The notes under the pieces: generated by a model
Database searches by the model: none
What the model was told of the DNA's origin: nothing
Seen by the model: only the letters and a program-made list of their open reading frames with translations
Origin: an uncultured Bacilli bacterium
GTDB taxonomy: Bacteria > Bacillota_I > Bacilli_A > RF39 > UBA660
Reading direction: 5' to 3'
Assembly (NCBI GenBank): GCA_934167665.1
Contig: CAKPLN010000002.1
Coordinates: 232,107 to 296,106, forward strand
Length of the DNA stretch: 64,000 nucleotides
Shown here: piece after piece, positions 8,975-64,000 of the stretch
Position numbering within the stretch: the stretch's first letter is position 1
How the letters are laid out: each line of letters opens with the position of its first letter
Position numbers and translations under genes: made by a program

Positions 8975-9071
8975 ACTTATACTCTCCAATTATAGAATAT
9001 TTGTATAATTAAGTAGTGTCAATATTTTTAGTTTAGTATATTTTATATTTACATTAGTTTACGATTACTTT

Positions 9072-9767
9072 TTAATTTATTTTTTTTAAGATATTTGTCA
9101 TTGCTTCAGCAACTTTTTTACTGCTGTCTTGAAGAAAAGTTTCATATGTTATGGTGTTATTGTTGTTTGGCGTGTCAGATATGCTTCTTATGATTAAAAA
9201 TGGAATATGACTTAAATAACAAATTTGGGCAATAGAGGCACCTTCCATTTCTACACATAAGGCATTAAATTTCTTATTAATTTTTTTACTCATATTAAAT
9301 TCTGTACAGAAAATATCTCCAGATGCTATTACGCCAGAAAATACATTCATCTTTTGCTCATCTTTTAGGACGTTATTAGCTAATTTGTATAAGTATTCAT
9401 CTGAATTTATATAAACACCTATTTCTGGTATATATCCTTTTTCATGATTAAATGCTGTTATATCAAAATCATGTTGAACTAATCTTTCACCTATGACGAT
9501 ATCTCCGACTTTAAGATTAGGAGAAATTCCACCAGCTACGCCAACGTTAAATATATAATCAATTTTAATATGGTCTATTAATATTTGTGTTGCTCTAGCA
9601 GCATTAACTTTCCCGACTCCACATTTTACTAGTATACATCTAGTATTACTAATTATTCCTTCATAAAATTTTAAATCAAATATTTTATACTCTTTTTCTT
9701 GTTTTAAAAATTTAAGTAATTCATTTAATTCTTCTTCAATAGCAAAAATTATTCCAACTGTTTTCAT
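9072..9767 (-). CDS. mtnN: 5'-methylthioadenosine/S-adenosylhomocysteine nucleosidase
   Basis: 231 aa with VGVAGG and VEMEGASIAQ motifs and a typical N-terminal GIIFAIEEE. Confidence 0.9.
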   Translation of the reverse strand: MKTVGIIFAIEEELNELLKFLKQEKEYKIFDLKFYEGIISNTRCILVKCGVGKVNAARATQILIDHIKIDYIFNVGVAGGISPNLKVGDIVIGERLVQHDFDITAFNHEKGYIPEIGVYINSDEYLYKLANNVLKDEQKMNVFSGVIASGDIFCTEFNMSKKINKKFNALCVEMEGASIAQICYLSHIPFLIIRSISDTPNNNNTITYETFLQDSSKKVAEAMTNILKKIN

Positions 9768-16637: not shown

Positions 16638-16668
16638 AAGAATCTTTAAATAGATTCTTTTATTTTTG
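16637..16668. terminator. bidirectional terminator between the convergent protease and sortase genes
   Basis: AAAGAATCT-ttaaat-AGATTCTTT with flanking A and T runs. Confidence 0.65.
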
Positions 16669-17206
16669 CTTCTACTATTAATTGCATTTTATTATTTTGT
16701 GTGCTACAGGTAGTTAATATCAGTTGACTCTCATTCCTTTTAGAAAATTTTATATAACCATTTTTCTCTTGTTCATAAATATTATCTACTACATAAATAT
16801 ACGTTTCATCGTAGTATTTAAATTCTATTTCGTCACCTTCACTTAACTCTATTAGTTTATTGAAATATGCGATTCTTCCTTCTCCGGAATGAGCTGCTAA
16901 CACGACAAGACTGTTTTTATCTTTTAAATTTTCTGATGTCTTTAATATAGTGACGTTTTCCTCTATGTTATTGTGTTTACTATTAATATCATATATTTTA
17001 TTGCTTAAATTAATTTTATCTATTTTTAAGAACCCTATATTTTTTTCTATCTTCGTTATAGACTCTTTATCTTTATTTGTTATTACTTGGTTTATCTCTT
17101 TATTAGTTATATTGGTTATTTTAATATTTTCTTCTTTTATGATTTTTTCTTTATATGTTATTTTGAAATTTATAATTAATAGTATTATTAATAATTTTAT
17201 TATCAT
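16646..17206 (-). CDS. sortase family transpeptidase
   Basis: N-terminal TM helix, VLAAHSG (catalytic His) and LILTTCS (TLxTC Cys motif). Confidence 0.8.
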   Translation of the reverse strand: MIIKLLIILLIINFKITYKEKIIKEENIKITNITNKEINQVITNKDKESITKIEKNIGFLKIDKINLSNKIYDINSKHNNIEENVTILKTSENLKDKNSLVVLAAHSGEGRIAYFNKLIELSEGDEIEFKYYDETYIYVVDNIYEQEKNGYIKFSKRNESQLILTTCSTQNNKMQLIVEAKIKESI

Positions 17207-18626
17207 ATATTTGTCCTATTATTTTAATTATTTTGAGTATTATTTGATTAATAATATTGTCTTTACTTTTTGCGTATGTATTAGGTACTTTTATTTTATA
17301 GTCTTTTAGGTCATATGTTAAAGGTGTGTTACTATTTATTATGATGATGAATGGTTCTACTATTTCATAACCGTCAGTTGTATTTTGTTGAACTACTTTA
17401 TATGTTCCATATGGTAATTCTATTTCTAAATTGCCAAATTTATCTGTTGTTAGACTTTTATATAGATTATTTTTGTTATCATAAATATTAAATGTAACAT
17501 TTTCTTCATCTTTAATTAGCTCTTCATCAATATAGACTTTATGAATTTTTAATTTTCCTTTTATGACTTTATTTTTTAAAGTAATGGCTATTTTGGGTTG
17601 CTCTTTAGATAATTCAAATTCATATATATTAGTATCTAAAGTATAACCTGTTCCAGCTATTACTTCTTTTATGTAATATTTTCCTATTGGTAAACTTTTA
17701 AGCGTTGTGGTTAATTCGGCGTCAAATATTATTTCTGCAATCTCAAACATATTTTCATTATATATTTTGTATGTTGCTCCTTCTAATTTGGCCATTCCAC
17801 TGGCTATTTTTGAATTTGTATCAAAATCTATTTTATCTAGTTTTACTTCTGTATCAGTTACTTTAACATTAATAGTTAATGTTTCTTCGTCTAGGTTACC
17901 TATAGTTACTAAATCTTGACTATCTACTGAAGTAAAGAAAACGATATTTTCTTTATGATTGTTGAATTTTTGAGCAACTACTATTTTATGTTCTCCTACC
18001 GGAAGGTTTTCTATGGTTATGGTGTTATTTGTTATAGTTGTATATTTATCGTCACTTTTATATGTTATATTATAGTCATTATCTAATGGTATTTCTATTT
18101 TTTCACCAATTGTTATTGTATAATTTAGTTCTGTTTTAATACTATTTTGGTAGTTATTTATCGCATTATTTAGTTCATTTATCAGGTCTTGATACTTGTT
18201 AGTTTTATTACCATTTAGTGAATCTGTAAAATAATATAATCCATTTGGTTCAACTGTTTCCCAAATAAGTAATTGTGTTATAGCGTACCATATTTCATCT
18301 TCTTTACCTTTATTTTTATAGCCTAAGTAAACTAAATATTTAATTCTATTTTTTTGCTCTTCAGTTAGTTTTGTTGAAACTATGTCTTCATAGCTACTGT
18401 TTTCATTAAACATGGTAAATGGCTCTAGACAATAAGCAATATTTCCTGTTTCTCTTTGCTTAAACATACGGGCTTTTTGATAATATATAGTTTTTCTGTT
18501 AGGAGTTACTTTATTCATCCATACATTGTCTATATATTTATCTTCATAAAAATTTGTTACTTTAGCGTAAGTTGGCTGTGGTAATAATGCTATTAATGAT
18601 GTTAAGAAAATAATTATTAATTTCAT
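17151..18626 (-). CDS. putative thioester-domain (Cys-Gln) surface adhesin with two Cna-B/SpaA-type Ig-like domains
   Basis: Signal peptide ending TYA/K. AYCLEP (Cys66, nt 18429-18431) and AITQLLIWE (Gln118, nt 18273-18275). Two domains show GxYxxxE..xxGY patterns. A sortase gene is adjacent. Confidence 0.6.
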   Translation of the reverse strand: MKLIIIFLTSLIALLPQPTYAKVTNFYEDKYIDNVWMNKVTPNRKTIYYQKARMFKQRETGNIAYCLEPFTMFNENSSYEDIVSTKLTEEQKNRIKYLVYLGYKNKGKEDEIWYAITQLLIWETVEPNGLYYFTDSLNGNKTNKYQDLINELNNAINNYQNSIKTELNYTITIGEKIEIPLDNDYNITYKSDDKYTTITNNTITIENLPVGEHKIVVAQKFNNHKENIVFFTSVDSQDLVTIGNLDEETLTINVKVTDTEVKLDKIDFDTNSKIASGMAKLEGATYKIYNENMFEIAEIIFDAELTTTLKSLPIGKYYIKEVIAGTGYTLDTNIYEFELSKEQPKIAITLKNKVIKGKLKIHKVYIDEELIKDEENVTFNIYDNKNNLYKSLTTDKFGNLEIELPYGTYKVVQQNTTDGYEIVEPFIIIINSNTPLTYDLKDYKIKVPNTYAKSKDNIINQIILKIIKIIGQIYDNKIINNTINYKFQNNI

Positions 18627-31885: not shown

Positions 31886-33277
31886 ATGAAGAAAATATTA
31901 AATAATAAAAAAGGTTTTACCTTGGTAGAACTTTTAGCCGTAATCGTCATTATGGGTATTTTGATGATGGTGGCTATTCCATCAATAAGTAGAGTAATCG
32001 AAAATTCTAGAAAAGATACGTTTGTAGATATCGCTAAGTCTTATGCTAATGCGGCTAAGACACTTTGGACAGCTGACACTTTAACATGTGAAGGAACAGT
32101 TGCTTCAGCTGTAGATGATGGCGATTATTATATTTTAATTAATACAACTGAATCAGCTAGAACTATGCTACCAGTATTAGTAGATCAAGGTGGTAAGTCA
32201 TCTTGGGGAAATAGAGATGTAAATGGTTATGTAAGAGTTCATGTTGAAACAGTAACAGATAACAATGGAGAACCAAAAAGAACCACAACTTTTTATGTTA
32301 GTTTAAGTGATGGAACTCATGGCTTAATAGATAATGGAAGTATGACTTCAGATAACCTAAAAAAAGGTAATGTTAAAATGGATTTATCGAGTGATGATAA
32401 GAAAAAAGTAGAATTAACACTTGATAATGGTAACTTAAATTGTTCTAAGACTAATCTTGGAACTTATACGTGTACAGAAGTAACACCAGTAAAAACTATA
32501 ACCGGTTTATGTGTAGATGACTCAAGTTATGCTGGAAATAATGGTACAGTAGATGTTAATCCAGTAAGCTTTGCGAATGATGATTGGGCAACAATAGCAG
32601 CTGCCGCAAAGAGTGGAAACTATGAAGGAAAATATAACGTAGGAGATACTAAAGAAGTAGACCTAGGAAGTCTAGGAAAACATACAGTAAGAATAGCTAA
32701 TACTTTAACACCAGCAGAATGTAGCCAAGAAGGTTTTTCACAAACTGCCTGTGGTTTCGTATTAGAATTTGCAGATATAATTACAACACATAATATGAAT
32801 CCAAAAGGAGAATATAAGGGAACAACATATGAATATGGTTGGAACAAAGATGGTTGGCCAGCAAGTAGTATGAGAAGTTATTTAAGTACAGATATATATA
32901 ATGCTTTACCAACAGATTTACAAAGTGCCATAATAGATACAAGAGTAGTATCAGGACACGGTAAAGATGATAAAGATAATTTTATTTCAACAGATAAGTT
33001 GTATTTATTGTCTACAGCTGAAGTATGGGCACAAGGAATTTTTTACGATGCAGGAAGAAATAATACTAGACAGTTAGATTATTATACAGGAGTTACAACA
33101 AAAAGTTATTCTAAGGTTATTAAACAGCTAAACGGATCAAATACTTATTGGTGGCTCCGCACGGCTGATTTCACTGGTAATGAAAATTTCTTTAGTGTGA
33201 GTGGTAATGGTGTTTGGAATAACCATATTTATGCTAATTATACGAACGGTGTTTCGCCGGCTTTCCGAATAGCCTAA
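31886..33277 (+). CDS. large type IV pilin-like (prepilin N-terminal cleavage/methylation motif) protein, paralog 1
   Basis: KKGFTLVELLAVIVIMGILMMVAIP is a class III signal (G/FTLVE). About 400 aa of extracellular region ends in a WWLRTA...GVSPAFRIA module, which I recall as DUF6273-like. Confidence 0.8.
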   Translation: MKKILNNKKGFTLVELLAVIVIMGILMMVAIPSISRVIENSRKDTFVDIAKSYANAAKTLWTADTLTCEGTVASAVDDGDYYILINTTESARTMLPVLVDQGGKSSWGNRDVNGYVRVHVETVTDNNGEPKRTTTFYVSLSDGTHGLIDNGSMTSDNLKKGNVKMDLSSDDKKKVELTLDNGNLNCSKTNLGTYTCTEVTPVKTITGLCVDDSSYAGNNGTVDVNPVSFANDDWATIAAAAKSGNYEGKYNVGDTKEVDLGSLGKHTVRIANTLTPAECSQEGFSQTACGFVLEFADIITTHNMNPKGEYKGTTYEYGWNKDGWPASSMRSYLSTDIYNALPTDLQSAIIDTRVVSGHGKDDKDNFISTDKLYLLSTAEVWAQGIFYDAGRNNTRQLDYYTGVTTKSYSKVIKQLNGSNTYWWLRTADFTGNENFFSVSGNGVWNNHIYANYTNGVSPAFRIA

Positions 33278-33437: not shown

Positions 33438-33462
33438 TTATACATAATAGAGAGAGGTGTAT

Positions 33463-34863
33463 ATGAAAAGAATTAATAAAAAAGGTTTTACTTTAGTAGA
33501 ACTACTTGCTGTAATTGTTATTATGGGTATTTTGATGATGGTGGCTATTCCATCAATAAGTAGAGTAATTGAAAATTCTAGAAAGGATACGTTTGTAGAT
33601 ATCGCCAAGTCTTATGCTAATGCGGCTAAAACACTTTGGACAGCTGATACTTTAACGTGTGAAGGAACAGTAGCCTCAGCTGTAGATGATGGTGATTATT
33701 ATATTTTAATTAATACTAAAGAATCTGCTAGAGCAATACTTCCAGTATTAGTAGATCAAGGTGGTAAGTCATCTTGGGGAAATAGAGATGTAAATGGTTA
33801 TGTAAGAGTTCATGTTGAAACAGTAACAGATAACAATGGAGAACCAAAAAGAACCACAACTTTTTATGTTAGTTTAAGTGATGGAACTCATGGCTTAATA
33901 GATAATGGAAGTATGACTTCAGATAACCTAAAAAAAGGTAATGTTAAAATGGATTTATCGAGTGATGATAAGAAAAAAGTAGAATTAACACTTGATAATG
34001 GTAACTTAAATTGTTCTAAGACTAATCTTGGAACTTATACGTGTACAGACGTAGCACCAGTAAAAACTATAACCGGTTTATGTGTAGATGACTCAAGTTA
34101 CGCTGGAAATAATGGTACAGTAGATGTTAATCCAGTAAGTTTTGCGAATGATGACTGGGCAACCATAGCTGCTGCCGCAAAGAGTGGAAACTATGAAGGA
34201 AAATATAATGTAGGTGATACTAAAGAAGTAGACCTAGGAAGTCTAGGAAAGCATACAGTAAGAATAGCTAATACCTCAACAACAGCAGAATGTAGTCAAG
34301 AAGGTTTTTCACAAACAGCTTGTGGTTTCGTATTAGAGTTTGCAGATATAATTACAACGCATAATATGAATCCAAGTGGAGAATATAAGGGAACAACATA
34401 TCCATATGGCTGGAACAAAGATGGTTGGCCAGCAAGTAGTATGAGAAGTTATTTAAGTACAGATATATATAATGCTTTACCAGTAGATTTACAAAGCACC
34501 ATAATAGATACAAAAGTAGTATCAGGACATGGGCCTAGTGATTCATCTAACTTTACTTCAACAGATAAGTTGTATTTATTGTCTACAGCTGAAGTATGGG
34601 CACAAGGGACATCAAATACTATTACTACCGATACAGGAAGAGATAATACTAGACAGTTAGATTATTACTTGGCACAAGGTGTAACAACAAGTAATAAATC
34701 TGGAGCTATTAAACAGAGAAATGGATCAAATTATTATTGGTTTCTCCGCACGGCTGATTCCCATATAGATAGCCTTTTCTGTAATGTGTTTGGTGATGGT
34801 AGTTGGGGTAACAATTATGCTAGTCTTACGACCGGTGTTTCGCCGGCTTTCCGAATAGCCTAA
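33463..34863 (+). CDS. large type IV pilin-like protein, paralog 2
   Basis: Same class III signal (KKGFTLVELLAVIVIMG). Nearly identical to paralog 1 over the first two thirds and divergent over the last 110 aa or so. ATG at 33463 follows GAGAGGTG. Confidence 0.8.
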   Translation: MKRINKKGFTLVELLAVIVIMGILMMVAIPSISRVIENSRKDTFVDIAKSYANAAKTLWTADTLTCEGTVASAVDDGDYYILINTKESARAILPVLVDQGGKSSWGNRDVNGYVRVHVETVTDNNGEPKRTTTFYVSLSDGTHGLIDNGSMTSDNLKKGNVKMDLSSDDKKKVELTLDNGNLNCSKTNLGTYTCTDVAPVKTITGLCVDDSSYAGNNGTVDVNPVSFANDDWATIAAAAKSGNYEGKYNVGDTKEVDLGSLGKHTVRIANTSTTAECSQEGFSQTACGFVLEFADIITTHNMNPSGEYKGTTYPYGWNKDGWPASSMRSYLSTDIYNALPVDLQSTIIDTKVVSGHGPSDSSNFTSTDKLYLLSTAEVWAQGTSNTITTDTGRDNTRQLDYYLAQGVTTSNKSGAIKQRNGSNYYWFLRTADSHIDSLFCNVFGDGSWGNNYASLTTGVSPAFRIA

Positions 34864-36723: not shown

Positions 36724-38115
36724 GAGTGTGTAAGGAATTCTGTGTAAATGATATCTAACCATGATAGATAGGAACTTTATATAGGTTCCTTTTTTGTTAT
36801 TTAAATAGTAACATATAATATTTAATTTTCAAAGAACTAAATTCTTCCATCAAACATAATAGATAAAGATAGTATAGGCCCCCAATTTCTATATGCTTGG
36901 TCCCACTTTTTAGATATATTTTTAGTAGCTAAATATAAGCATTTAAGCAATGACATATCTGTCGGAAAAACAGATTTTGTTTTAGTGAATTTTCTAAATT
37001 GTCGATTTAAAGATTCGATTGTATTAGTAGTATACATTATTTTTCTAATTTGTTCTGAGAATTGGAAGAATGGACAAATAGCATCCCAATTTTCTTCCCA
37101 TGTTTTAAATGCCGATGAATATTTATCAGACCATTTGTTTTTTACCTCTTGTAATTGCTCATATCCTTTTTCTTCATCTACTGATGTATAAATTTTCTTT
37201 AAATCATTTGTGAACACTTTTAAATCTTTGTAATTTACAAATTTAACTGAATTTCTAATCATATGAACAATACATCTTTGTTGAACAGTATTAGGAAATG
37301 CCGCATTAATTGCTTCTTTGATGCCAGTTAAATTATCGCTACATATTATAAGAATATCTTTAATTCCTCGTTGCTTTAATTCATTTAATACACCAAGCCA
37401 ATACTTGGCTGATTCATTTTCTCCTATCCATATTCCTAATACTTCTTTGAATCCTTCTGAATTAACTCCTAAAACTATATAAGCTGCTTTTTTTATAATA
37501 TGATTATCTTCTCTTACACTAAAGTGTACTGCATCTATAAATACAAATGGATAAGTATCATCTAATGGTCTTTCTTGCCATTCTTTTATTTCAGGTATTA
37601 TTTGGTCTGTTATATTACTAACTACTGTTGCAGATACTTCTATTCCATATAATTCTTGTATTTGTTCGTTAATATCTCTAGTTGTTAATCCTTTTGCATA
37701 TAATGAAATTATTTTATCCTCAATACCTGATACATCTCTTGTATTTTTAGGAACTATTTTTGGATCAAATTCTCTATTTCTATCTCTAGGTGTTTCGAAT
37801 TCAAATGAACCAAATTCACTTTTTAAATTCTTTTTTGTTGAGCCATTTCTATAATTTGTTTTTTCTGTCTTTTTGTCATATTTAGAGTATCCCATTGATG
37901 AATCAAACTCGGCATTCATCATTTCTTGTAATGCACCTCTGAACATATCTTTTAATGCACTTGATAAATCTTGAGCAGTTTCAATTTTATAATTTTCTTG
38001 TAATAATTTTAGTATTTCTTTCCCTTTATTATTTTCTTTCATAATAAAAATCTCTCCATTTCTTTTATTTTATCATGGAAAGATTTCTTATTTACACAAA
38101 TTGATTTACAGACTC
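36724..38115 (-). mobile_element. IS256-family insertion sequence, complete (1392 bp)
   Basis: Imperfect terminal inverted repeats: GAGTGTGTAAGGAATTCTGTGTAAAT at 36724 against the reverse complement of the right end, GAGTCTGTAAATCAATTTGTGTAAAT. A single transposase ORF lies inside. Confidence 0.85.
36837..38042 (-). CDS. IS256 family transposase
   Basis: 401 aa with typical mutator-type motifs: MGYSKYD, NYRNGS, PRDRNREFDP and a conserved DDE region. Confidence 0.93.
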   Translation of the reverse strand: MKENNKGKEILKLLQENYKIETAQDLSSALKDMFRGALQEMMNAEFDSSMGYSKYDKKTEKTNYRNGSTKKNLKSEFGSFEFETPRDRNREFDPKIVPKNTRDVSGIEDKIISLYAKGLTTRDINEQIQELYGIEVSATVVSNITDQIIPEIKEWQERPLDDTYPFVFIDAVHFSVREDNHIIKKAAYIVLGVNSEGFKEVLGIWIGENESAKYWLGVLNELKQRGIKDILIICSDNLTGIKEAINAAFPNTVQQRCIVHMIRNSVKFVNYKDLKVFTNDLKKIYTSVDEEKGYEQLQEVKNKWSDKYSSAFKTWEENWDAICPFFQFSEQIRKIMYTTNTIESLNRQFRKFTKTKSVFPTDMSLLKCLYLATKNISKKWDQAYRNWGPILSLSIMFDGRI

Positions 38116-38873: not shown

Positions 38874-38932
38874 ACAAGAAAAGAAATAAAATGAAGCAGA
38901 TTTTATCTATTTCATTTTATTTCTTTTCTTGT
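38874..38932. repeat. perfect 22-bp-stem inverted repeat at the junction of unique DNA and the truncated IS copy
   Basis: 38874-38895 is the exact reverse complement of 38911-38932, with a 15-nt loop. Confidence 0.9.
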
Positions 38933-39478
38933 AATATGATTATCTTCTCTTACACTAAAGTGTACTGCATCTATAAATACAAATGGATAAGTATCATCTA
39001 ATGGTCTTTCTTGCCATTCTTTTATTTCAGGTATTATTTGGTCTGTTATATTACTAACTACTGTTGCAGATACTTCTATTCCATATAATTCTTGTATTTG
39101 TTCGTTAATATCTCTAGTTGTTAATCCTTTTGCATATAATGAAATTATTTTATCCTCAATACCTGATACATCTCTTGTATTTTTAGGAACTATTTTTGGA
39201 TCAAATTCTCTATTTCTATCTCTAGGTGTTTCGAATTCAAATGAACCAAATTCACTTTTTAAATTCTTTTTTGTTGAGCCATTTCTATAATTTGTTTTTT
39301 CTGCCTTTTTGTCATATTTAGAGTATCCCATTGATGAATCAAACTCGGCATTCATCATTTCTTGTAATGCACCTTTGAACATATCTTTTAATGCACTTGA
39401 TAAATCTTGAGCAGTTTCAATTTTATAATTTTCTTGTAATAATTTTAATATTTATTTTCCTTTGTTATTTTCTTTCAT
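38932..39478 (-). pseudogene. IS256 transposase pseudogene (nonsense at codon 9, 3' truncated)
   Basis: ATG at 39478 gives MKENNKGK then TAA, where the full copy has GAA. Homology stops at about 38932. Confidence 0.85.
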
Positions 39479-45769: not shown

Positions 45770-45844
45770 ACTTTTGTTTATTTTTTTCTTGTATGAATTT
45801 ATTGTTATGATATAATAAATATATATTTTCATTGATTAATATTT

Positions 45845-46031
45845 AGTAGATTTTAATTATTATTTAAGAGACTTAGTGGTTGGTGTAAACTAAGAAGTAA
45901 TTATGATTGAATTACACTATTAGGAGAAAATCGTTTATTGCGTTAAGATAATTAAAGTGCACAGATATCTGTGAATTAAGGTGGTACCGCGAACTATTCG
46001 TCCTTATTAGGATGAGTAGTTTTTATTTTTA
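45845..46031 (+). promoter_or_regulatory. T-box leader, probable Tyr (UAC) specifier
   Basis: AAGAGAC and a GGTTGGTGTAAA distal loop. Candidate specifier TAC at 45913-45915. T-box AAGGTGGTACCGCG at about 45978-45992. Terminator CTATTCGTCC-ttatta-GGATGAGTAG followed by a T run. Confidence 0.85.
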
Positions 46032-48418: not shown

Positions 48419-48469
48419 AATTTTTTCTACTTTTTATTATGAATTGTGTATTGATAATACACTTTTTTT
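48415..48469 (+). terminator. two consecutive terminator hairpins upstream of the T7SS locus
   Basis: GTAGAA-tttt-TTCTAC plus T5 at 48415-48436. GTGTAT-tgata-ATACAC plus T7 at 48446-48469. Confidence 0.6.
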
Positions 48470-48568
48470 ATTTTTAATAATTATTAATATTCTGTATTGA
48501 TTTTACTAACTTTATGGACTTTATTTTTTAAATCTGTTATTATATTAATATAATAGGTGGGATGTAAC

Positions 48569-51500
48569 ATGAGACTTTATATTCAGGAAAAAAGTAATTT
48601 GTTAAAATATAATTTACCAGCAAAAGTTGATGGATCTTTACTTTTTACGTATAAATCTTTGGATAATGACATGGAATACTCTATTAATATTGATTCTCTT
48701 GATGGAACTTGGTTTTTAAAGAGTAATGGAAGTATCAATGTTATTGGTAGTAACGGAATAGTTTCTGATATGCAACTGCATGATTATATGTGTGTACCTG
48801 TTTCAGCTGTTTTAAGAAATGGTTATACTTGTATATTTTGCTTACCTTCAATTGAAACATCTTCATCTTCTTTTTCTGTTGAGAATGTCTCTCAAATAAC
48901 AATTGGACGTTCAGCAGATAATAATATTGTTTATGATCAAAATATGATGTTTCCTAAACATGCTGTTATTTTTAAAAATGAAAGCGATGGTAAATGGTAT
49001 GTTTCAACGGTCGTTTCGGATGAAAATTGCTATTTATATTTAAATACTGATAGAGTTTTACAACCAACACTTTTATCAGTTGGAGATGTTCTTTTTGCTA
49101 ATGGATTAAGACTTGTTTGGATGGGTAGTTTTTTCAAACTATTTATGGATAAGCAGTTATATAAATGCAATGGTCTTAATTATTCTTCTAGTAATGTTGT
49201 AGTAAATAATGAAGGATATACTGAAGTTAGTGAAGCTGAGGCTAATATCGATTTATATAAGAGTGATGAGTACTTTTCTCATACACCTAGAATTAGGTGT
49301 GTACTTGAGAAGGAAAGTATTTCTATTGAACCACCACCTAATAAGTTTTTAAAAGATGATGAGTTGCCATTTATACTTAGCATAGGTACTAGTTTAACTA
49401 TGGTTGGTATGGCATCTATGAATGCATATAATATATATTCTTCTGTTAATAATGAAGGTGCTACTTTAATTTCCCAATTGCCTGGTATTGTAACTTGTTC
49501 TACGATGGTAATTAGTTCATTACTTATACCTTTATTAACAAAGAGATGGAATAAAAAATTACTTATAAAAAAAGAAAATAATAGACAGTTAAAATATGAT
49601 GAGTATTTGAAAAAGAAAGAGAAAGAAATTCAAATAGTACTTGAAAAGCAACGGCAAATTATTTATGAAAATTATGGTAGTATTAATGATTGCCAAAATA
49701 TAGTTATTAATAAAACAAGAATGCTTTGGTCTAGGAAAATAAGTGATGAAGATTTTATAGATGTACGACTTGGTATTGGTAGTAGACCTTCTTATATTGA
49801 AATTAATGCTCCTGAAGAGAAGTTTTCTTTAGAGGATGATACTTTATATGATGCTGTTTGTGCTATTAAAGATAGATACAAAAGACTACAGAATATTCCT
49901 ATAACTTTTAGTTTAAAAGATGATCCAGTGTCTGCTTTTATATTGGTTAGTAAATTTAATGATGCTTTTATTGATTGTATAATGTTACAATTAGCAACAT
50001 ATCATAGTCCTGTTGATTTAAAAATAGTAGTAGTTACTAATGAAGAAAATAAAAAGAAATGGGATTATGTTAGATATCTTCCACATTGTTGGAGTGATGA
50101 TAAACAAGTTAGATATTTTGCTACTAACCCAGAGGATTTGAAAACTATATGTCAGTTATTGGATGAGGAATATAGTACTAGAAAAGCTAAAAAAGAGGAA
50201 CGTGAAGCTGAACAACAGGAAAAATCAAAAGAAAAGGTAGAAGAGAGAGCTTTATATGACTCTTATTACTTAATTATTACTGATAATTATCAAATGTTAA
50301 AGGGCTTTAAATTTACTAATGATTTATTGGATACACAATTTAATTATGGTTTTTCTATGCTTATAATAGAAAATGAAATGAAACATTTACCTAAAGAATG
50401 TCAAAAGTTTGTGTGTATAAATGATAGTGAGTCTGGAGTGTTCTCGGAAAAAATTAAAGAAAATGAAATGATTCAGTTCAATGCTGAATATGAAAACCTA
50501 GATATGCGTTTCATTTGTAATTTATTAGCAAATATTCCTATATCTTTAAAAGATACTGCTAGTCAATTACCTAATATGCTTCCATTCTTGGAAATGTATA
50601 ATGTTGGTAAAGTAGAGCAATTAAATATTAGAAATAGATGGGCTACTAGTGATCCAATATCTTCATTACAGGCTCCTGTTGGTGTTCATAAAAATGGAGA
50701 TTTATTTAAGCTTGATTTACATGAAAAATATGATGGACCACATGGATTGATTGCTGGTTCTACTGGTTCTGGTAAATCAGAGTTTATTATTACTTATATT
50801 TTATCTATGGCTATTAATTATGATCCGGAGGAAGTCCAATTTGTTTTGATTGACTATAAAGGTGGAGGCTTAGCTGGAGCTTTTGAAAATAGAGAACAAA
50901 ATATTTTCATTCCTCATTTAGTTGGTACTATCACAAACTTGGATGTTTCTGAAATGAATAGAACACTGGTATCTATTGAAAGTGAACTTAAGAGAAGACA
51001 GCAAAAATTTAACGAATGGCGTGAAAAAACTGGCGAAAGTACTATGGATATTTATAAATATCAGAGACTTTATAGAGCGGGTATTATAAAGGAACCTATA
51101 TCACATTTATTTATAATTTCTGATGAGTTTGCTGAGTTAAAATCTCAACAACCTGAATTTATGAATCAACTTATTTCAACAGCTAGAATTGGTCGTTCCT
51201 TAGGAGTGCATCTTATTCTTGCTACACAGAAACCATCTGGAGTAGTTAATGATCAAATCTGGTCTAACTCTAAATTTAAGGTTTGTTTAAAGGTTCAAAG
51301 TAGAGCTGATAGTATGGAAATGTTGAAAAGACCAGAAGCTGCTAGTATTAAAGAAACTGGTAGATTCTATTTGCAAGTTGGATATGATGAATATTTTGAT
51401 ATTGGTCAATCTGCTTGGTCTGGTGAAAAATATAAACCGGTTGAAAGAATCGTAAAGAAAAATGATACTTCTATTGTTTTTGTTAATGATGTTGGCGAAA

Positions 51501-53203
51501 TTATTAAGCGCTTTGATGATGTGGTAAAGCAAGATCAAGAACAAAAAAGTTATGGAGATCAATTAACTAATGTTGTTAAGTATTTACAAAAAATTGCAGT
51601 TGATGACAAACGTGTTTTAAAAAAGCTATGGTTACCTTCTTTGGAAAAAACTATTATGCGTGCTGATTTGATAAAGAAATATAATTTTTCTTATGATGAT
51701 GGATATGGAACTGTGATTGGCGAATATGATGCACCTTGGTCTCAAAAACAAGGCATTATATGTTTGGATTTGCTAAAACAAGGTAATCTATTAATATATG
51801 GTCAACCTGGTTCTGGAAAGGATAATATAATATCAACTATTATATATGATTTGTCTTTACGAAAGTCTCCAGATGATATTAATTTTTACATAGGCGATTT
51901 TGGTGCAGAAACATTAAGAACATTTAAAAAAATTCCACAAGTTGGTGATGTATTTACAATTGATGATTTTGATAAAATTCAAAATTTAATTAAGATGTTG
52001 GATAAAGAACTTGATAGAAGAAAGAAAACTTACGCTGACTATGGTGGTAGTTATGAAGAGTATTATAAATTGACTGGTAATAAAGAGGCAGTTATTGTAA
52101 CAGCACTCAATAATTATGAAAACTTTTTGGAAACTTATCCAAAGTTTTATGATATTTTTACTGGTTTATTTAGAGATGGTGCTAAATATGGTTTATTATT
52201 TATTGTTACTACTACTGTATCTAATGCCGTTAGGTCTAAGGTTGCTCAATGCTTTTACAATAAAATATGTCTTAAAATGTCAAATGATTTTGACTATAGA
52301 GAACTTTTAGGAGCACCTAAAGGAATGGTTCCGGCTGATAATTATGGTAGAGGAGTTATATCTGTTAATGGTGATGATAGTTGTTATGAATTCCAAAGCG
52401 TAATGATTTCACCTAAAGATAATAGAACACAATTCTTGAAAGATGTTTCTTCTGATTTATGTAAATCTTATACTACTAGGGCTAAAAAGATACCTATTTT
52501 ACCTGAGGTTGCTTATGTTGATGATGTATTGTATGAATTAAAGGGATTAAACTGTGTACCTATAGGAATTGAAAAAAATTCTCTTGAAGTTTATGTTTTC
52601 AGTTTTATGGAACTTAAGGTTAATTTAATTGCTGCTAAATCTATAAGAAGTCATGTATACTTTATATATGCTCTTATAAGAGAAATGTTATTAATAGAGA
52701 ATGTTAATGTTATTATTGTTGATGCTTTAAATATATATAGAGGTAAATATGATAATGTTACTTTATATAATGATAATTTAGATGAGGCCTTTGAAAATAT
52801 ATATTATAATGTTCAAAATGATCAATCTTCTACTAAGACAAATGTATATTTTTGTTTAGGTATTAATGAATTTAAAAATAATATTTCTAGTAAATATAGT
52901 GAATACTTTGAAGAGTTATTTAAAGGTGTTAGTAAGTGTTCTAATAATACATTTTTATTCTTTGATGATTCTAATAATTATAAACAATTACAACTTGAAA
53001 AATGGTATAATGAAAATGTCAATAATACGTTTGGTATTTGGCTTGGTGAAGATATTGGAGTTCAAGTTGCTCTTGGGGTTATGTCTTTAACTATTGAGGA
53101 TAAGCAAAATATTTTCCCATGTATAGGTTATCCAATATATCAAGGAAAGCATATGACTATTAAATATGTTGTTGATGGAGTTGATAAAGAAGATGAAGAA
53201 TAA
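48569..53203 (+). CDS. essC: type VII secretion (T7SSb) EssC/YukB-type FtsK/SpoIIIE ATPase
   Basis: N-terminal FHA-like domains (ITIGRSADNNIVYD...), two TM helices and three FtsK-like modules. D1 has Walker A GSTGSGKS at 50755-50778 and Walker B IISDEFAEL. D2 has GQPGSGKD at 51800-51823. D3 has no visible P-loop. Confidence 0.9.
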   Translation: MRLYIQEKSNLLKYNLPAKVDGSLLFTYKSLDNDMEYSINIDSLDGTWFLKSNGSINVIGSNGIVSDMQLHDYMCVPVSAVLRNGYTCIFCLPSIETSSSSFSVENVSQITIGRSADNNIVYDQNMMFPKHAVIFKNESDGKWYVSTVVSDENCYLYLNTDRVLQPTLLSVGDVLFANGLRLVWMGSFFKLFMDKQLYKCNGLNYSSSNVVVNNEGYTEVSEAEANIDLYKSDEYFSHTPRIRCVLEKESISIEPPPNKFLKDDELPFILSIGTSLTMVGMASMNAYNIYSSVNNEGATLISQLPGIVTCSTMVISSLLIPLLTKRWNKKLLIKKENNRQLKYDEYLKKKEKEIQIVLEKQRQIIYENYGSINDCQNIVINKTRMLWSRKISDEDFIDVRLGIGSRPSYIEINAPEEKFSLEDDTLYDAVCAIKDRYKRLQNIPITFSLKDDPVSAFILVSKFNDAFIDCIMLQLATYHSPVDLKIVVVTNEENKKKWDYVRYLPHCWSDDKQVRYFATNPEDLKTICQLLDEEYSTRKAKKEEREAEQQEKSKEKVEERALYDSYYLIITDNYQMLKGFKFTNDLLDTQFNYGFSMLIIENEMKHLPKECQKFVCINDSESGVFSEKIKENEMIQFNAEYENLDMRFICNLLANIPISLKDTASQLPNMLPFLEMYNVGKVEQLNIRNRWATSDPISSLQAPVGVHKNGDLFKLDLHEKYDGPHGLIAGSTGSGKSEFIITYILSMAINYDPEEVQFVLIDYKGGGLAGAFENREQNIFIPHLVGTITNLDVSEMNRTLVSIESELKRRQQKFNEWREKTGESTMDIYKYQRLYRAGIIKEPISHLFIISDEFAELKSQQPEFMNQLISTARIGRSLGVHLILATQKPSGVVNDQIWSNSKFKVCLKVQSRADSMEMLKRPEAASIKETGRFYLQVGYDEYFDIGQSAWSGEKYKPVERIVKKNDTSIVFVNDVGEIIKRFDDVVKQDQEQKSYGDQLTNVVKYLQKIAVDDKRVLKKLWLPSLEKTIMRADLIKKYNFSYDDGYGTVIGEYDAPWSQKQGIICLDLLKQGNLLIYGQPGSGKDNIISTIIYDLSLRKSPDDINFYIGDFGAETLRTFKKIPQVGDVFTIDDFDKIQNLIKMLDKELDRRKKTYADYGGSYEEYYKLTGNKEAVIVTALNNYENFLETYPKFYDIFTGLFRDGAKYGLLFIVTTTVSNAVRSKVAQCFYNKICLKMSNDFDYRELLGAPKGMVPADNYGRGVISVNGDDSCYEFQSVMISPKDNRTQFLKDVSSDLCKSYTTRAKKIPILPEVAYVDDVLYELKGLNCVPIGIEKNSLEVYVFSFMELKVNLIAAKSIRSHVYFIYALIREMLLIENVNVIIVDALNIYRGKYDNVTLYNDNLDEAFENIYYNVQNDQSSTKTNVYFCLGINEFKNNISSKYSEYFEELFKGVSKCSNNTFLFFDDSNNYKQLQLEKWYNENVNNTFGIWLGEDIGVQVALGVMSLTIEDKQNIFPCIGYPIYQGKHMTIKYVVDGVDKEDEE

Positions 53204-53447
53204 GGTTTTAGTAGAATTGGTTGTACCTGCCTTAGAGGTTAAGTATGATGTTTATGTTCCCGTCAATAGAAAAATAGGTAGTGTTGTAGTTTTGCTTACT
53301 AAAGCAATGAGTGAGTTGTCTGGTGGCTATTCTGATAGTATTAAAAACTTTTCTTTATATGATGGCATATCTGGCAATCAGTATTCGCCGGATCAGTTGA
53401 TTAGAAATTCAAATATTAGAAATGGTAGTAAAATAATATTAATGTGA
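53193..53447 (+). CDS. esaB: YukD/EsaB-like ubiquitin-fold protein
   Basis: About 84 aa, overlaps the essC stop. VELVVPALEVKYDVYVPVNRKIGSVV pattern and C-terminal GSKIILM. Confidence 0.65.
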   Translation: MKNKVLVELVVPALEVKYDVYVPVNRKIGSVVVLLTKAMSELSGGYSDSIKNFSLYDGISGNQYSPDQLIRNSNIRNGSKIILM

Positions 53448-53456
53448 GGTGAAAAT

Positions 53457-53783
53457 ATGAGTTTAAGTAGTTTAATTTGGCAACGTGATCAATATGTAAA
53501 GGCAAAAGGGCAGGTGTTAAGAACTGCTTCACATTTGGACTCTGTTCGTTCTAATGTGTCTTCTGCTTTAGGAAAGGAAAATAAGGGATATGCAGTTGAT
53601 GGTAGCTGTACAGATAATGATTTTTTGGGTAAAATTTATACTACTGAGTCTGACTTATCAAGTAAAATAACTGGTGAAGTTGTACCTAGGATAGATAGCA
53701 ATATAAGTAGATTAAATGTACTTATAGCTAGGGAACGTGAACGTCTTGAAGCTCTAAGAAGAGAAGCTGAAAATAGGAGGTAA
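53457..53783 (+). CDS. small helical protein (108 aa), T7SS-associated
   Basis: Tightly packed after esaB. Predicted helical with an RERERLEALRREAENRR tail. No WXG. Confidence 0.55.
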   Translation: MSLSSLIWQRDQYVKAKGQVLRTASHLDSVRSNVSSALGKENKGYAVDGSCTDNDFLGKIYTTESDLSSKITGEVVPRIDSNISRLNVLIARERERLEALRREAENRR

Positions 53784-53785
53784 TT

Positions 53786-54085
53786 ATGGGAAAATTGGGT
53801 ATTGATTCAGAAAAAATCAAATTAGCAGGAGAAAATATTGTTAAAGCTTCTGAAAAACTTAATACTACATTTGATGAAATTTTTGAAAAATTATGTGATG
53901 TTGAGGACTATGATAGTTGGGAAGGTGCTTCTGTTAAAAAATGGATTTCTATTGTATCCTCAGAAAAACAGCAGTATTCTGATTATTCTGTATCTGTTAA
54001 TAATTTTGGAAAGCAATTGATTGAGTATGCTGATAGCATTAATTCAATTGCTTCTGAGACAATTGGAGGTGGCTCATGCCAGTAG
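53786..54085 (+). CDS. WXG100-like protein (99 aa)
   Basis: W45-E46-G47 lies mid-protein (nt 53918-53926), flanked by helical segments. The size is typical of the family. Confidence 0.65.
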   Translation: MGKLGIDSEKIKLAGENIVKASEKLNTTFDEIFEKLCDVEDYDSWEGASVKKWISIVSSEKQQYSDYSVSVNNFGKQLIEYADSINSIASETIGGGSCQ

Positions 54086-54378
54086 TTAATTTTGATAGTG
54101 AAACTATAGTTGAGGGGGTTTTGCCTCAAGTTAAAACGTCTTATAATGAAATACAAACCGCTATTGGTATTGCTAATGGTATTAGTTTTCCTGGTGATGA
54201 TTGTGGTTGGAGTGGAGTAAAGTCAAAACTTTCTGATTGTAAGGCTGATACAAAAAAATATATTGATTGGTTATCTGAAAAAAATTTTAAAACTAATGAG
54301 ACAATTATTAATAATGATGAAAATATGGGAAATGTAAAAGTTGGAGAAATTAAAAAACGAGAATTGATTGTAAAATAA
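54076..54378 (+). CDS. WXG100-like protein (100 aa), divergent
   Basis: W45-S46-G47 sits at the same position as in the preceding gene. The start overlaps the preceding stop by 10 nt. Confidence 0.5.
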   Translation: MPVVNFDSETIVEGVLPQVKTSYNEIQTAIGIANGISFPGDDCGWSGVKSKLSDCKADTKKYIDWLSEKNFKTNETIINNDENMGNVKVGEIKKRELIVK

Positions 54379-54460
54379 TGTACACTATTTTAGTTTTTTG
54401 TTGCTAAAAAAATTGAAGTAGCGTATGATGAAATTATGATAAGTGATGGTAGGATGATTT

Positions 54461-54775
54461 ATGAGTACAGGAATCAATGTTCAAAAAATTAATGCTTTGC
54501 GACAAGAGTTACTTGATTATGCAGAAAATGTTAGTGCAATTCTTAACACTATTGAATCAGAGTATGAAAAAGTTAAGAATAGCATTGAGGGCCCTTCTGC
54601 TGAAGTGATTTCTAATAAGTATCTTGATATTGCAAATTATTATGAAACTATTAAAGCTAATATTGTTTCTTATGTTACTGATTTGGGCAATGTAGTATCT
54701 GCTTATGATAATCAGGATCAAGAATTGTCTGAAATTGTTATCAGTGATGCTAATAAAATGGTTGAAGGGAGTTAA
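54461..54775 (+). CDS. WXG100-sized helical protein lacking Trp (104 aa)
   Basis: Helix-turn-helix-like layout with IEGPS at the central turn. Confidence 0.5.
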   Translation: MSTGINVQKINALRQELLDYAENVSAILNTIESEYEKVKNSIEGPSAEVISNKYLDIANYYETIKANIVSYVTDLGNVVSAYDNQDQELSEIVISDANKMVEGS

Positions 54776-54780
54776 TTTTT

Positions 54781-55080
54781 ATGCCAAGTATTGGAGAGCT
54801 TAATTATGGTTATGATGCCGGTGGTGTAGATGCGTATCTTGAAGAAATTAAAGCTAAAGTATTAACAGAGGTTGCTGCTCAACTTGAGGATACTTCTGCT
54901 ATAGAAAGCGCCTGCAATGAAAACTGGGAAGGTATTGCTAAAGAGAATTTTTTAGCAAATTTAAAAACAGATGTTGCACATGTTAAGGAGCAATATCAAG
55001 TTTTATATAATGTTTTGAATGGTGAGATTCAATCTGTTCATGCTGCAATGGCAAACAAAGATGAATCTTTGATTGGTTAG
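54781..55080 (+). CDS. WXG100-like protein (99 aa)
   Basis: Central W49-E50-G51 (NENWEGIAKENF). Confidence 0.65.
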   Translation: MPSIGELNYGYDAGGVDAYLEEIKAKVLTEVAAQLEDTSAIESACNENWEGIAKENFLANLKTDVAHVKEQYQVLYNVLNGEIQSVHAAMANKDESLIG

Positions 55081-55090
55081 GAGGAATAGT

Positions 55091-55537
55091 ATGTCAATTT
55101 CGATGAGTGGAGCAACAGTTGATCAAAGTTCTAGAGATGCTTTATTAGCTAGTACAGTTGATGGTGGTTCAACTGGTGGTGTTAGTGCTAATAAAGGTGG
55201 ACTTTTCGGTTTGGGTGGAGCAAGCGGTGCTGCTTTAGCCGGAGTTACTGCAGAATTTGCAGCTCAAGTTTCTAGTGCTATTGATGATTATTGTACTAAT
55301 GTTGAAAATAAGTTAAATGAGTTAAATGCTGTTGAATCTAATGGTGCTTTTAGAGGTGCTGCTTTAACGGGAGCTTTAAGTAGTTTTATTAATGGTGTTA
55401 AGGAAGTTTCAATGGCGTATTTAGCAAAGTTAAAAGTAGCAGAACAAGAAATAGTTGCAAGTGTTGGAGCTGCTTACGAAGCTCAAGATACAGATCTTGC
55501 TGGTAACTTAAATAGTGATATTGGAACTATTTCATAG
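55091..55537 (+). CDS. Gly/Ala-rich protein with WXG100-sized C-terminal helical domain (149 aa)
   Basis: RBS AGGAGG. The N-terminal 50 aa are G/A/S-rich. F87-R88-G89 sits at the expected turn. Locally higher GC than the surroundings. Confidence 0.55.
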   Translation: MSISMSGATVDQSSRDALLASTVDGGSTGGVSANKGGLFGLGGASGAALAGVTAEFAAQVSSAIDDYCTNVENKLNELNAVESNGAFRGAALTGALSSFINGVKEVSMAYLAKLKVAEQEIVASVGAAYEAQDTDLAGNLNSDIGTIS

Positions 55538-55560
55538 TTTACAGAGTTGTTATTAAAATT

Positions 55561-55586
55561 AAAATTGGGGCAAACCCAATTTTTTG
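55561..55586 (+). terminator. terminator closing the T7SS locus
   Basis: AAAATTGGG-loop-CCCAATTTT followed by a T run. Confidence 0.7.
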
Positions 55587-55602
55587 TTTTATATTTTTAT
55601 AC

Positions 55603-62659: not shown

Positions 62660-62692
62660 GCCTTTTTTCATATATTATATTGGGTGAAAATA

Positions 62693-63145
62693 ATGAAGAT
62701 TGTGATTATTTCTTCTGAGGAATTTTTTGTTTTTGTTAATTCTGTGTATGCTAAAATTTCGGATTATAGTGATAAAGAAGAAATAATTGATGTTACTAAA
62801 AGTATTATATCTAAAATAAGTACGCGTCTTAGAATGAGAGGATTTTATAAAATAAAAGTACTTGTAGATCCTGTTGTTGGACTATTTATCGAAGGAGTAC
62901 AATTAGAAAATTTGGAAAGAGTTAATGCAGTAGATTTACGTGTTATTGTTTATTTTAATGAAGATATTTATTTTAAGACTTCTGACTATTTTATAATAGG
63001 TGATGTTCCTAACGTTAGATATTTTGATGGAGATTATTATTGTTTGACTAGGGATATTCCGGATATAAATAAAGTTATAGAATTTGGAGAGTTTGTATAT
63101 GGATCTTCTATTTTAAAGATGCTTTATAATAGTTCTTTTGTGTAA
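62693..63145 (+). CDS. hypothetical protein
   Basis: 150-aa ORF with no confident family. Any resemblance to MecA-type adaptors is too weak to call. Confidence 0.4.
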   Translation: MKIVIISSEEFFVFVNSVYAKISDYSDKEEIIDVTKSIISKISTRLRMRGFYKIKVLVDPVVGLFIEGVQLENLERVNAVDLRVIVYFNEDIYFKTSDYFIIGDVPNVRYFDGDYYCLTRDIPDINKVIEFGEFVYGSSILKMLYNSSFV

Positions 63146-63190: not shown

Positions 63191-64000
63191 TTATATGACA
63201 ATAGCAATCATGTTATTTGAACCTTTATTTACTACTTTTGATAGTGTTGTTTGTAGTTTAAATCTTATATTGTCAGGCATAAGATTTATTTTTGATTGAA
63301 TTCCTTCTTGAACAATGGAGTCTAAGCTTCTACCAAATATTTCACTTTTCCATATTTCATTAGGGTTTTTATCATGATCTTTCATAATGTAATCAATTAA
63401 TTCTTTGCTTTGAACTTCACTACCAATAATTGGTTCAAATGTGGATTCAACATCTACTCTAATCATATGAATAGATGGTGCCACAGCTTTTAATTTTACA
63501 CCATATCTTGGCCCTTGTTTTATAATTTCTGGTTTATCTAATTTCATATCTTCAATTGATGGGGTAGCGACGCCATATCCTGTTTGTTTTACCATTTTTA
63601 GAGCATATTTTATTTGATCGTATTCTCTTTTGGCTGTATTGAATTCTTGGAATAGGGCTAGTAAATCAGCCTTATTTTTGACATCTATTTTTATTATATC
63701 AGTTAGGGTTTTATTATATAAATCGGCTGGAGCCGTTAGATTCACTGTTATGATACCTGTTGAAGGATCTACATCTGATAGATAACTTTTTTCAATCATA
63801 TCATTAGATAGAAAATGAGTTATTATATTATCTATATCTTTTAATTTATCTATTTCTACAACACTTTCTTTAATAGATGAGATGTAACTTTTTTTGACTG
63901 GATGATCTGGATTTAAAATAGCTATCCATTCTGGCATATTTACTTTTATTTCTAGTACTGGAAATTCATATAGAGCTTCTTTTAAAATATTATACATATC
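63191..64000 (-). CDS. spoIVA: stage IV sporulation protein A, C-terminal part (partial; continues beyond the window)
   Basis: YEFPVLEIKVNMPEWI, KMVKQTGYGVATP, VKLKAVAPSIHMIRVDVES and a C-terminal ...MIAIVI closely parallel B. subtilis SpoIVA. Confidence 0.9.
   Translation of the reverse strand, partial: DMYNILKEALYEFPVLEIKVNMPEWIAILNPDHPVKKSYISSIKESVVEIDKLKDIDNIITHFLSNDMIEKSYLSDVDPSTGIITVNLTAPADLYNKTLTDIIKIDVKNKADLLALFQEFNTAKREYDQIKYALKMVKQTGYGVATPSIEDMKLDKPEIIKQGPRYGVKLKAVAPSIHMIRVDVESTFEPIIGSEVQSKELIDYIMKDHDKNPNEIWKSEIFGRSLDSIVQEGIQSKINLMPDNIRFKLQTTLSKVVNKGSNNMIAIVI

Follow-up and report, generated by a model that had tools for sequence, protein, structure and literature searches.

A 64,000-nucleotide stretch of the contig CAKPLN010000002.1 from an uncultured Bacilli bacterium (hereafter the window) holds, at positions 48569-55537 of the forward strand, one operon of eight co-directional, tightly packed genes within 7 kb. 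It encodes the EssC ATPase (1544 aa) of a type VII secretion system (T7SS), a YukD/EsaB-like protein with a ubiquitin fold, and six soluble proteins 99-148 aa long, which are referred to as P3 to P8. We lean towards reading this locus as a self-contained, reduced type VII secretion operon. The EssC is intact and FHA-bearing, it is accompanied by a YukD-type protein, and the six soluble small proteins fall into two conserved triplets. As expected of a T7SS in the broad sense, the genes of an EssC/EccC-type membrane ATPase and of at least one WXG100 protein are found together. The features of the operon and its edges are as follows.

48446-48475, forward strand: weak hairpin (stem about 48446-48462) followed by a U-run, 3' of the His_Phos gene; left edge of the operon.
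48569-53203, forward strand: essC (tsxC), FHA-bearing membrane-anchored FtsK/SpoIIIE-type ATPase, 1544 aa (TIGR03928, Pfam, YukB in PDB).
53193-53447, forward strand: YukD/EsaB-like ubiquitin-fold protein (TsxB), 84 aa (AlphaFold2, Foldseek, PF08817 in relatives).
53457-53783, forward strand: P3, 108 aa, soluble; opens module X; family not detected; Y-x-I-D-D at the turn.
53786-54085, forward strand: P4, 99 aa, WXG100 protein of module X (W45-E-G), by family profile against PDB.
54076-54378, forward strand: P5, 100 aa; closes module X; helical hairpin by AlphaFold2; overlaps P4 by 10 nt.
54461-54775, forward strand: P6, 104 aa, WXG100-like; opens module Y; C-terminal Y-D-N-Q-D (YxxxD).
54781-55080, forward strand: P7, 99 aa, WXG100 protein of module Y (W49-E-G51), by family profile against PDB.
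55091-55537, forward strand: P8, 148 aa, WXG100-like; closes module Y; C-terminal Y-E-A-Q-D (YxxxD).
55561-55583, forward strand: intrinsic terminator closing the operon (terminator scan; fold of -12.9 kcal/mol, z -2.9).

The open reading frame (ORF) of essC spans 48557-53203, and its start is the ATG at 48569, as called in public assemblies. The protein scores 968.8 bits against the NCBIfam model TIGR03928 (T7_EssCb_Firm; cutoff 778.4), and Pfam detects FtsK_SpoIIIE (E 5.9e-45) and an FHA domain at residues 114-179 (E 1.2e-7), a region kept across the clade. These matches bear out an EssC with FHA and FtsK modules, as proposed in the first-pass annotation of this DNA. The closest solved structure is that of B. 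subtilis YukB (9qks, E 4e-122), and EccC structures are also matched. The hydrophobic segment at residues 304-325 exceeds the hydropathy threshold, while a second segment, at about 266-289, was identified by visual inspection of the sequence. By hydropathy, neither the YukD-like protein nor any of P3-P8 has a transmembrane segment, and EssC is the only membrane protein of the operon. Walker A sequences are located at residue 730 in D1 (GSTGSGKS) and, in an atypical form, at residue 1078 in D2 (GQPGSGKD); a motif scan found no Walker A or P-loop in D3. In an alignment of 13 EssC clade members (50-76% identity), the mean column identity is 70%, and the Walker A and Walker B (D852, E853) residues of D1 are invariant. 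Because of this invariance EssC gives no sign of decay, and the gene is under purifying selection. Disabling EssC mutations, which the first-pass annotation had named as evidence that would count against its reading, were not seen. The phosphothreonine-binding residues of FHA2 are degenerate in the window clade (G-[RKN], F-P-K-H, S-x-N-G absent), whereas they are canonical (G-R, S-x-x-H, S-x-N-G) in the kinase/phosphatase-associated Clostridium locus L007 and in the protein P0058. The degeneracy fits a cassette without kinase or phosphatase. The FHA domains of T7SSb, in which these residues are likewise degenerate, are phospho-independent docking modules (PMC11217815).

The start of the YukD-like gene overlaps the essC stop by 11 nt. 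Its product has no sequence match in Pfam, NCBIfam, or PDB, either singly or as an 11-sequence profile; hence its fold was shown by structure prediction. The AlphaFold2 model, based on a 40-sequence alignment, has a beta-grasp fold with a predicted local distance difference test score (pLDDT) of 90.3. In Foldseek it is closest to EccD5 of the ESX-5 complex, whose ubiquitin-like domain (7npt_D8) it matches with a template modelling score of 0.78. Ubiquitin, SUMO, and ISG15 are further matches, and the ubiquitin-like domain of EccD1 (4kv2) is also listed. PF08817 (YukD) is matched by three of the 11 family members, with a best E-value of 4e-4. The confident model, the EccD5 match, and the Pfam matches of relatives together sustain the YukD/EsaB identity proposed at the outset. 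Its C-terminus is I-L-M, without Gly-Gly. At E<=1e-5 the protein has 791 homologues. In Clostridium neuense, C. hydrogenum, and other Clostridium, the YukD-like proteins (P0066, P0083, P0157) are labelled 'methyltransferase' in NCBI/UniRef, which looks like an annotation error.

The orthology across loci splits the six small proteins into module X (P3, P4, and P5) and module Y (P6, P7, and P8). Six tightly packed small proteins had been described before, and this description is confirmed at 99-148 aa. P4 and P7 are, judged by their sequence families, true WXG100 proteins. Their single-sequence Pfam scores are below cutoff, and the assignment comes from family profiles that match EsxA/EsxB at 1.5e-5 to 5e-5. 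Specifically, the P4 profile matches EsxA (3zbh, 2.5e-5) and B. anthracis EsxB (4j41, 3.4e-5), and the P7 profile matches S. aureus EsxA (2vrz, 1.5e-5). Of 38 P4 sequences, about 90% have the tryptophan. W49-E-G51 of P7 is invariant in five aligned orthologues, and its W and G are each present in about 90% of 24 sequences. P6 has a w-x-G turn and a C-terminal YxxxD conserved in alignments, and its NCBIfam scores are below cutoff (ESAT6_2, 3.7e-7; TIGR03930, 2.8e-5). The P6 and P8 families align in hhalign with 93% probability over P8 residues 49-147. P8 has a Gly/Ala-rich N-terminal extension, followed by a WXG100-like domain with an A-F-[KR]-G turn. Its family is narrow, with 119 representative clusters in 1.84 billion proteins, and its profile has no relative in PDB. 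P5 was modelled from 11 sequences as two helices, residues 8-35 and 45-85 (pLDDT 70.7), with a conserved proline at the turn; its C-terminus is a basic tail, I-K-K-R. The Foldseek matches of this model are all non-significant hairpins, including HP0062, EsxB, and CFP10. P3 matches nothing in Pfam or NCBIfam; its orthologues comprise 22 unique sequences, in which the Y-x-I-D-D motif of the turn region is conserved. No meaningful Pfam family was found for the P3, P5, and P8 families.

We then inspected the loci of EssC relatives, which comprise eight species-genome loci, 63 protein clusters (six contexts fetched), and 80 metagenome-contig loci, each covering at most 10 kb per side. All 63 clusters come from metagenomes or metagenome-assembled genomes (MAGs), and the named ones are 'Bacilli bacterium'; the nearest EssC in species genomes is 46% identical. 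Hidden Markov models of seven small-protein families were run on all ORFs of the related loci. The YukD-like gene and at least five of the six small families accompany EssC in 22 loci, 17 of which have all six. The EssCs of these 22 loci are 37-76% identical to that of the window. In a neighbour-joining tree, the cassette-bearing EssCs form one group, separate from those of the T7SSj-like Clostridium loci L007 and L008 and from a sister clade. The genomic neighbourhoods of the cassette are unrelated to each other: tyrS and His_Phos in the window, a Germane-domain gene (L012), a gap gene (L015, L016), trmB (L003), an Fe-repressor/suf cluster (L013), and LemA/TPM genes (L017). Four layouts occur: module X precedes Y, module Y precedes X, all six small genes are inverted as a block, or they lie upstream of essC. 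Swaps and inversions of the modules suggest that selection acts on gene content rather than gene order. That the gene content is kept through repeated relocation and rearrangement is the main argument for regarding the eight genes as a functional unit. In a clade of uncultured gut Bacilli, the set is, on sequence comparison, inherited and relocated as a unit. The cross-genome comparison that the first-pass annotation had called for finds the eight-gene set in 17-22 independent loci with unrelated neighbourhoods. The same annotation had pointed to the ATPase-first order as the reverse of that in the ess and yuk operons. This is true at the window locus, but it has no significance because the order varies among relatives.

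All flanking ORFs of the 22 loci were clustered, and no recurrent membrane-protein family was found beside the cassette. A large multi-transmembrane family that recurs in the related loci was not found either. The only recurrent flanking extras are a DUF4176 gene (six loci) and an HExxH protein (four loci), both in the Y-then-X subclade. The DUF4176 genes directly follow P5, as in L013:19114-20731, and the window has none. The HExxH protein of 550-600 aa has a signal peptide/lipobox (LLSGC in L013:14948-16753; also in L029, L032, and L035), and is encoded between P6 and the YukD-like gene. Pfam and PDB give no match for this protein, and the window has no homologue of it. Its features suggest a membrane-anchored extracellular metalloprotease, loosely like MycP of T7SSa. 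Other EssC relatives show further variation. L006 has a WXG100-CHAP fusion adjoining essC (8670-9617), likely a peptidoglycan-hydrolase effector. L005 and L014 encode candidate effectors, proteins of 1123 and 2256 aa without Pfam match, beside WXG100 genes, and L004 (3616-14322) has two tandem pairs of essC and YukD-like genes. The sister EssC clade (about 40% identity; L041-L061 and others, e.g. L060:9983-15230) has a still barer layout, in which essC is accompanied by nothing but the YukD-like gene and one helical-looking gene of about 70 aa, amid the housekeeping genes rplM, rpsI, amidase, and ZIP transporter.

The classical membrane partners were sought in the window by scanning unannotated ORFs of at least 120 aa against Pfam/NCBIfam and by using precomputed Pfam assignments for the rest. 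No window ORF matched YukC/EssB, EsaA/YueB, or EssA/YueC; the ORFs at 62684-63145 and 63191-63997, at the right end of the window, have no domain call. EssB (PF10140/NCBIfam) is found neither among the scanned or annotated window ORFs nor among the checked neighbours of relatives. As for EsaA, the window ORFs besides essC are at most 803 aa long, and the largest two encode a GH31 glycosidase and leucyl-tRNA synthetase. Among the small unannotated window ORFs, none has a Pfam/NCBIfam match to EssA. The local absence of all three partners, as first noticed, is thus upheld for the window ORFs. So is that of LXG and immunity-like genes, and no Rhs gene was found in the 64 kb. We also considered a 540-aa ORF at 5980-7602 (reverse strand) and other unannotated ORFs as a hidden EssB, EsaA, EssA, or HExxH homologue, and found this unsupported. 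The 540-aa ORF has no family match and adjoins a Peptidase_C39_2-domain protein (7679-8989, reverse strand).

Garrett, Higginson and Palmer (Microlife 2024, PMC11217815) described eight variants, T7SSc to T7SSj, which are built on TsxC (EssC), usually TsxB (YukD-like), and TsxA (WXG100), and all of which lack EssA, EssB, and EsaA. A T7SS without the classical membrane partners is therefore already published as a principle, and the locus is less unusual than the first-pass annotation assumed. Its T7SSb-like label holds for the EssC, FHA, and YukD components, but in view of these variants T7SSb is not the best frame. The layout of the window matches none of T7SSc-j and is a further reduced layout in the recognised T7SS diversity. 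The survey is based on RefSeq, while the window clade is known only from metagenomes. Neither this layout nor a 'T7SSk' was found described in a literature search, which included work after the 2024 survey.

The locus resembles T7SSb (S. aureus Ess and B. subtilis Yuk) in that EssC has an N-terminal FHA region, two transmembrane helices, and FtsK-type domains, and that a separate YukD/EsaB ubiquitin-fold protein and WXG100 proteins of about 100 aa are present. It differs from T7SSb in lacking EssB/YukC, EsaA/YueB, and EssA/YueC in the window or within 10 kb of the 22 related loci, and in having no LXG toxin or immunity genes in the window. Besides, T7SSb has a single EsxA, whereas the window locus has two non-identical WXG100 proteins and four more small partners. 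The T7SSj of Clostridium shares with the window a TsxC with FHA, a TsxB, WXG100 genes, and the lack of EssA, EssB, and EsaA. L007 and L008 match the T7SSj description, having a kinase, a small transmembrane protein, DUF6382-FHA proteins, and a PPM phosphatase. Their EssCs are 34-35% identical to that of the window and lie on a separate branch, and the YukD-like proteins are homologous (blastp, 3e-11). In contrast to T7SSj, the window cassette has no membrane Ser/Thr kinase, PPM phosphatase, DUF6382-FHA protein, or small transmembrane protein. An assignment to T7SSj was rejected: the Ser/Thr kinase and/or PPM phosphatase and the DUF6382-FHA protein that mark T7SSj, T7SSe, and T7SSf are absent from the cassette and its flanks. 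The gene directly upstream encodes a His_Phos_1 histidine phosphatase, not PPM, and is not conserved beside the cassette.

The simplest published layout is T7SSg of Acetivibrio and Paenibacillus (PMC11217815), which likewise combines a pair of non-identical WXG100 proteins with TsgB, TsgC, and little else. Different from the window locus with its six small proteins, T7SSg has two. Its TsgC lacks FHA, a DUF5050 beta-propeller protein (TsgL) is present, and Tad pilus genes are always adjacent; the cassette is the opposite on all three counts. With FHA present, no DUF5050 match in any scan, and no Tad genes beside the cassette, an assignment to T7SSg was rejected as well. As for the other variants, the ATPases of T7SSc, g, and h lack the FHA that the window EssC has. 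A kinase, phosphatase, or DUF6382-FHA protein occurs in T7SSc, d, e, f, and j, TsgL/Tad genes in g and h, an EspG-like protein in c, h, and i, and a LytR-type regulator in i; the window cassette has none of these. The small proteins, known from sequence, are reminiscent of LXG-Lap and EsxAB/PE-PPE complexes, where adjacent genes encode small helical hairpins in sets of two or three, with WXG on one partner and Y/FxxxD on another. They differ in that no toxin or large domain is attached to P3-P8, and that P3 and P5 match no Lap/WXG100 family.

Several points weigh against a self-contained operon. The search was limited to 64 kb of a 296-kb contig, so that unlinked EssB, EsaA, and EssA or a novel partner may exist. 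L034 and L068 belong to the EssC clade and have no detectable small-protein genes nearby. All sources are metagenomes or MAGs, and the system is known here from genes alone. We know of no T7SS yet shown to work with EssC as its sole membrane protein. In the T7SSb systems studied, EssB, EsaA, and EssA are required, being needed for secretion in B. subtilis and S. aureus (PMC12637312, PMC11217815). The cassette could accordingly be the motor or cytoplasmic half of a system whose essential membrane partners, either these three or an unrecognised analogue, are encoded elsewhere in the genome, beyond the 64-kb window searched. We give this main rival appreciable weight, short of thinking it probable. 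It would explain why the window EssC keeps N-terminal FHA domains, whose purpose in T7SSb is EssB binding, and Garrett et al. warn that neighbourhood analysis can miss components (PMC11217815). However, the cassette changes its genomic context as a unit, with no membrane protein accompanying it in the 22 loci, while the canonical T7SSb partners are always in an operon with essC. T7SSc offers a precedent, as genome-wide searches found no further T7SSa/T7SSb orthologues (PMC11217815). The first-pass annotation had offered both parts encoded elsewhere and a reduced architecture. The recurrence in 17-22 loci and the lack of a recurrent membrane partner favour the latter, and the former keeps the weight given above.

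Compatible with unlinked membrane partners is the idea that the six small proteins are Lap-like partners and an EsxA-like core factor for unlinked large antibacterial toxins, which would make the locus an ordinary interbacterial weapon. That the six small genes stay together and with essC even where a large gene is absent speaks against this, as does the location of known Lap genes, which adjoin their toxin gene and not essC; the 64-kb window also has no LXG, Rhs, or immunity-like gene. We thus consider it unlikely, even though T7SS toxins are exported in complex with two or three small WXG100-like partners (PMC11217815), related EssC loci hold the WXG100-CHAP fusion and the large proteins beside WXG100 genes, and DUF4176, a known stabiliser of LXG toxins (PMC12482557), is encoded immediately after P5 in six of the cassette loci. 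The role suggested earlier, a non-antibacterial one in a spore-former, is a conjecture: toxin and immunity genes are absent from the cassette, but related loci hold candidate effectors and DUF4176. Finally, the missing classical partners, the lack of a P-loop in D3, and the atypical D2 Walker A could be taken as signs that the locus is what is left of a more complete T7SS, decaying or no longer functional. In EssC of the T7SSb type, D3 is normally degenerate. Each of the eight reading frames is intact, stop and start codons overlap, the D1 Walker A/B residues are invariant in the 13 EssCs, and the set is conserved in 17-22 loci, which makes decay very improbable.

For the reduced operon, we propose a mechanism by analogy with YukB-YukC-YukD, ESX, and LXG-Lap pre-secretion complexes. 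EssC would oligomerise, as a hexamer by analogy with EccC and YukB, into a motor and membrane conduit. The structure of YukB-YukC-YukD from B. subtilis shows YukD as a clamp on the FHA domains, the DUF, and a D1 hairpin of YukB (PMC12637312), and the YukD-like protein of the window may similarly dock on the FHA/DUF region of EssC and fix an assembly-competent state. There would be no EssB pseudokinase to recruit, and assembly is not expected to be phospho-regulated, because the phosphothreonine-binding residues of FHA2 are degenerate. In mycobacterial ESX substrates, WXG on one partner and YxxxD/E on another make up a composite T7SS export signal. Applied to P3-P8, this analogy suggests that each triplet could form a helical-hairpin bundle with a composite signal, WXG on P4 or P7 and YxxxD on P6 or P8. 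The ATPase domains of EssC would recognise this signal and export the bundle, such that P3-P8 may be obligatory co-factors and main cargo alike. The triplet bundles and the role of YxxxD derive from motifs and analogy, which also weighs against the self-contained reading. A stronger proposal, in which EssC and one ubiquitin-like protein form a complete autonomous translocon, with EssC as the sole membrane component genome-wide and no partner like EssB/EccB, EccD, or EsaA, exporting two dedicated three-hairpin WXG100-like bundles that act as effectors themselves and not as toxin adaptors, is tentative and in our view rather unlikely.

The cassette bears on the identity of the T7SS channel and on which of its parts are indispensable. 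In the T7SSc-j survey, only EssC, the YukD-like protein, and WXG100 are near-universal, and each variant has its own extra parts (PMC11217815). With no extra parts, and conserved in one piece across many gut Bacilli, the cassette suggests itself as a candidate minimal T7SS. With eight genes in 7 kb, it is small enough for synthesis, tests in a T7SS-free host, and cryo-EM. In the two triplets, WXG is carried by one member and YxxxD by others, which makes them a toxin-free model for the make-up of composite T7SS signals. If the autonomous translocon were true, it would be a minimal natural T7SS, and the conserved conduit would be EssC itself. The biological payoff is limited for now, as the hosts are uncultured, the putative exported proteins are known only as sequences, and the concept has been anticipated.

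The edges of the operon are unequal. Strong terminators had been described on both sides; the downstream one stands, whereas the upstream hairpin is weak, with a fold of -6 kcal/mol (z -1.9) and a stem of few G-C pairs that the terminator scan missed. It is probably the terminator of the preceding His_Phos gene. A second hairpin beyond 55561-55583 is read here as serving the convergent rpsD gene. A sigma-70 promoter match was dismissed because it overlaps a ribosome-binding site. The cassette has a G+C content of 0.29-0.32, near the 0.28 of the window. With this similarity and no integrase or phage gene at the flanks of the cassette, an origin from a mobile element or prophage was rejected.

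The window, at about 28% G+C, carries housekeeping and sporulation genes typical of Bacilli, including tyrS, rpsD, ezrA, thiI, a SASP gene, ackA, femAB paralogues, leuS, and cse60. Just upstream of the operon, a T-box leader (45823-46008, forward strand; Rfam RF00230, 105 bits) precedes a 180-aa gene and tyrS. A full-length IS256-type (Transposase_mut) gene lies at 36837-38042 and a 156-aa fragment at 38912-39382, both on the reverse strand. The contigs L001 and L002, which have an identical EssC, differ at this site, and the insertion is therefore polymorphic in the population. About 14 kb upstream of essC, a paralogous pilin-like pair (31886-33277 and 33457-34863, forward strand) combines an N-terminal methylation motif with DUF6273. 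These N_methyl genes are not Tad genes. L017 has two N_methyl genes about 5 kb from the cassette, an association not conserved in other loci. A sortase with a TED/SpaA surface protein is encoded at 16646-18626 (reverse strand), and the segment 11447-14691 (forward strand) contains the c-di-AMP synthase pair cdaA-ybbR and, after it, the gene of a GerS-like germination lipoprotein.

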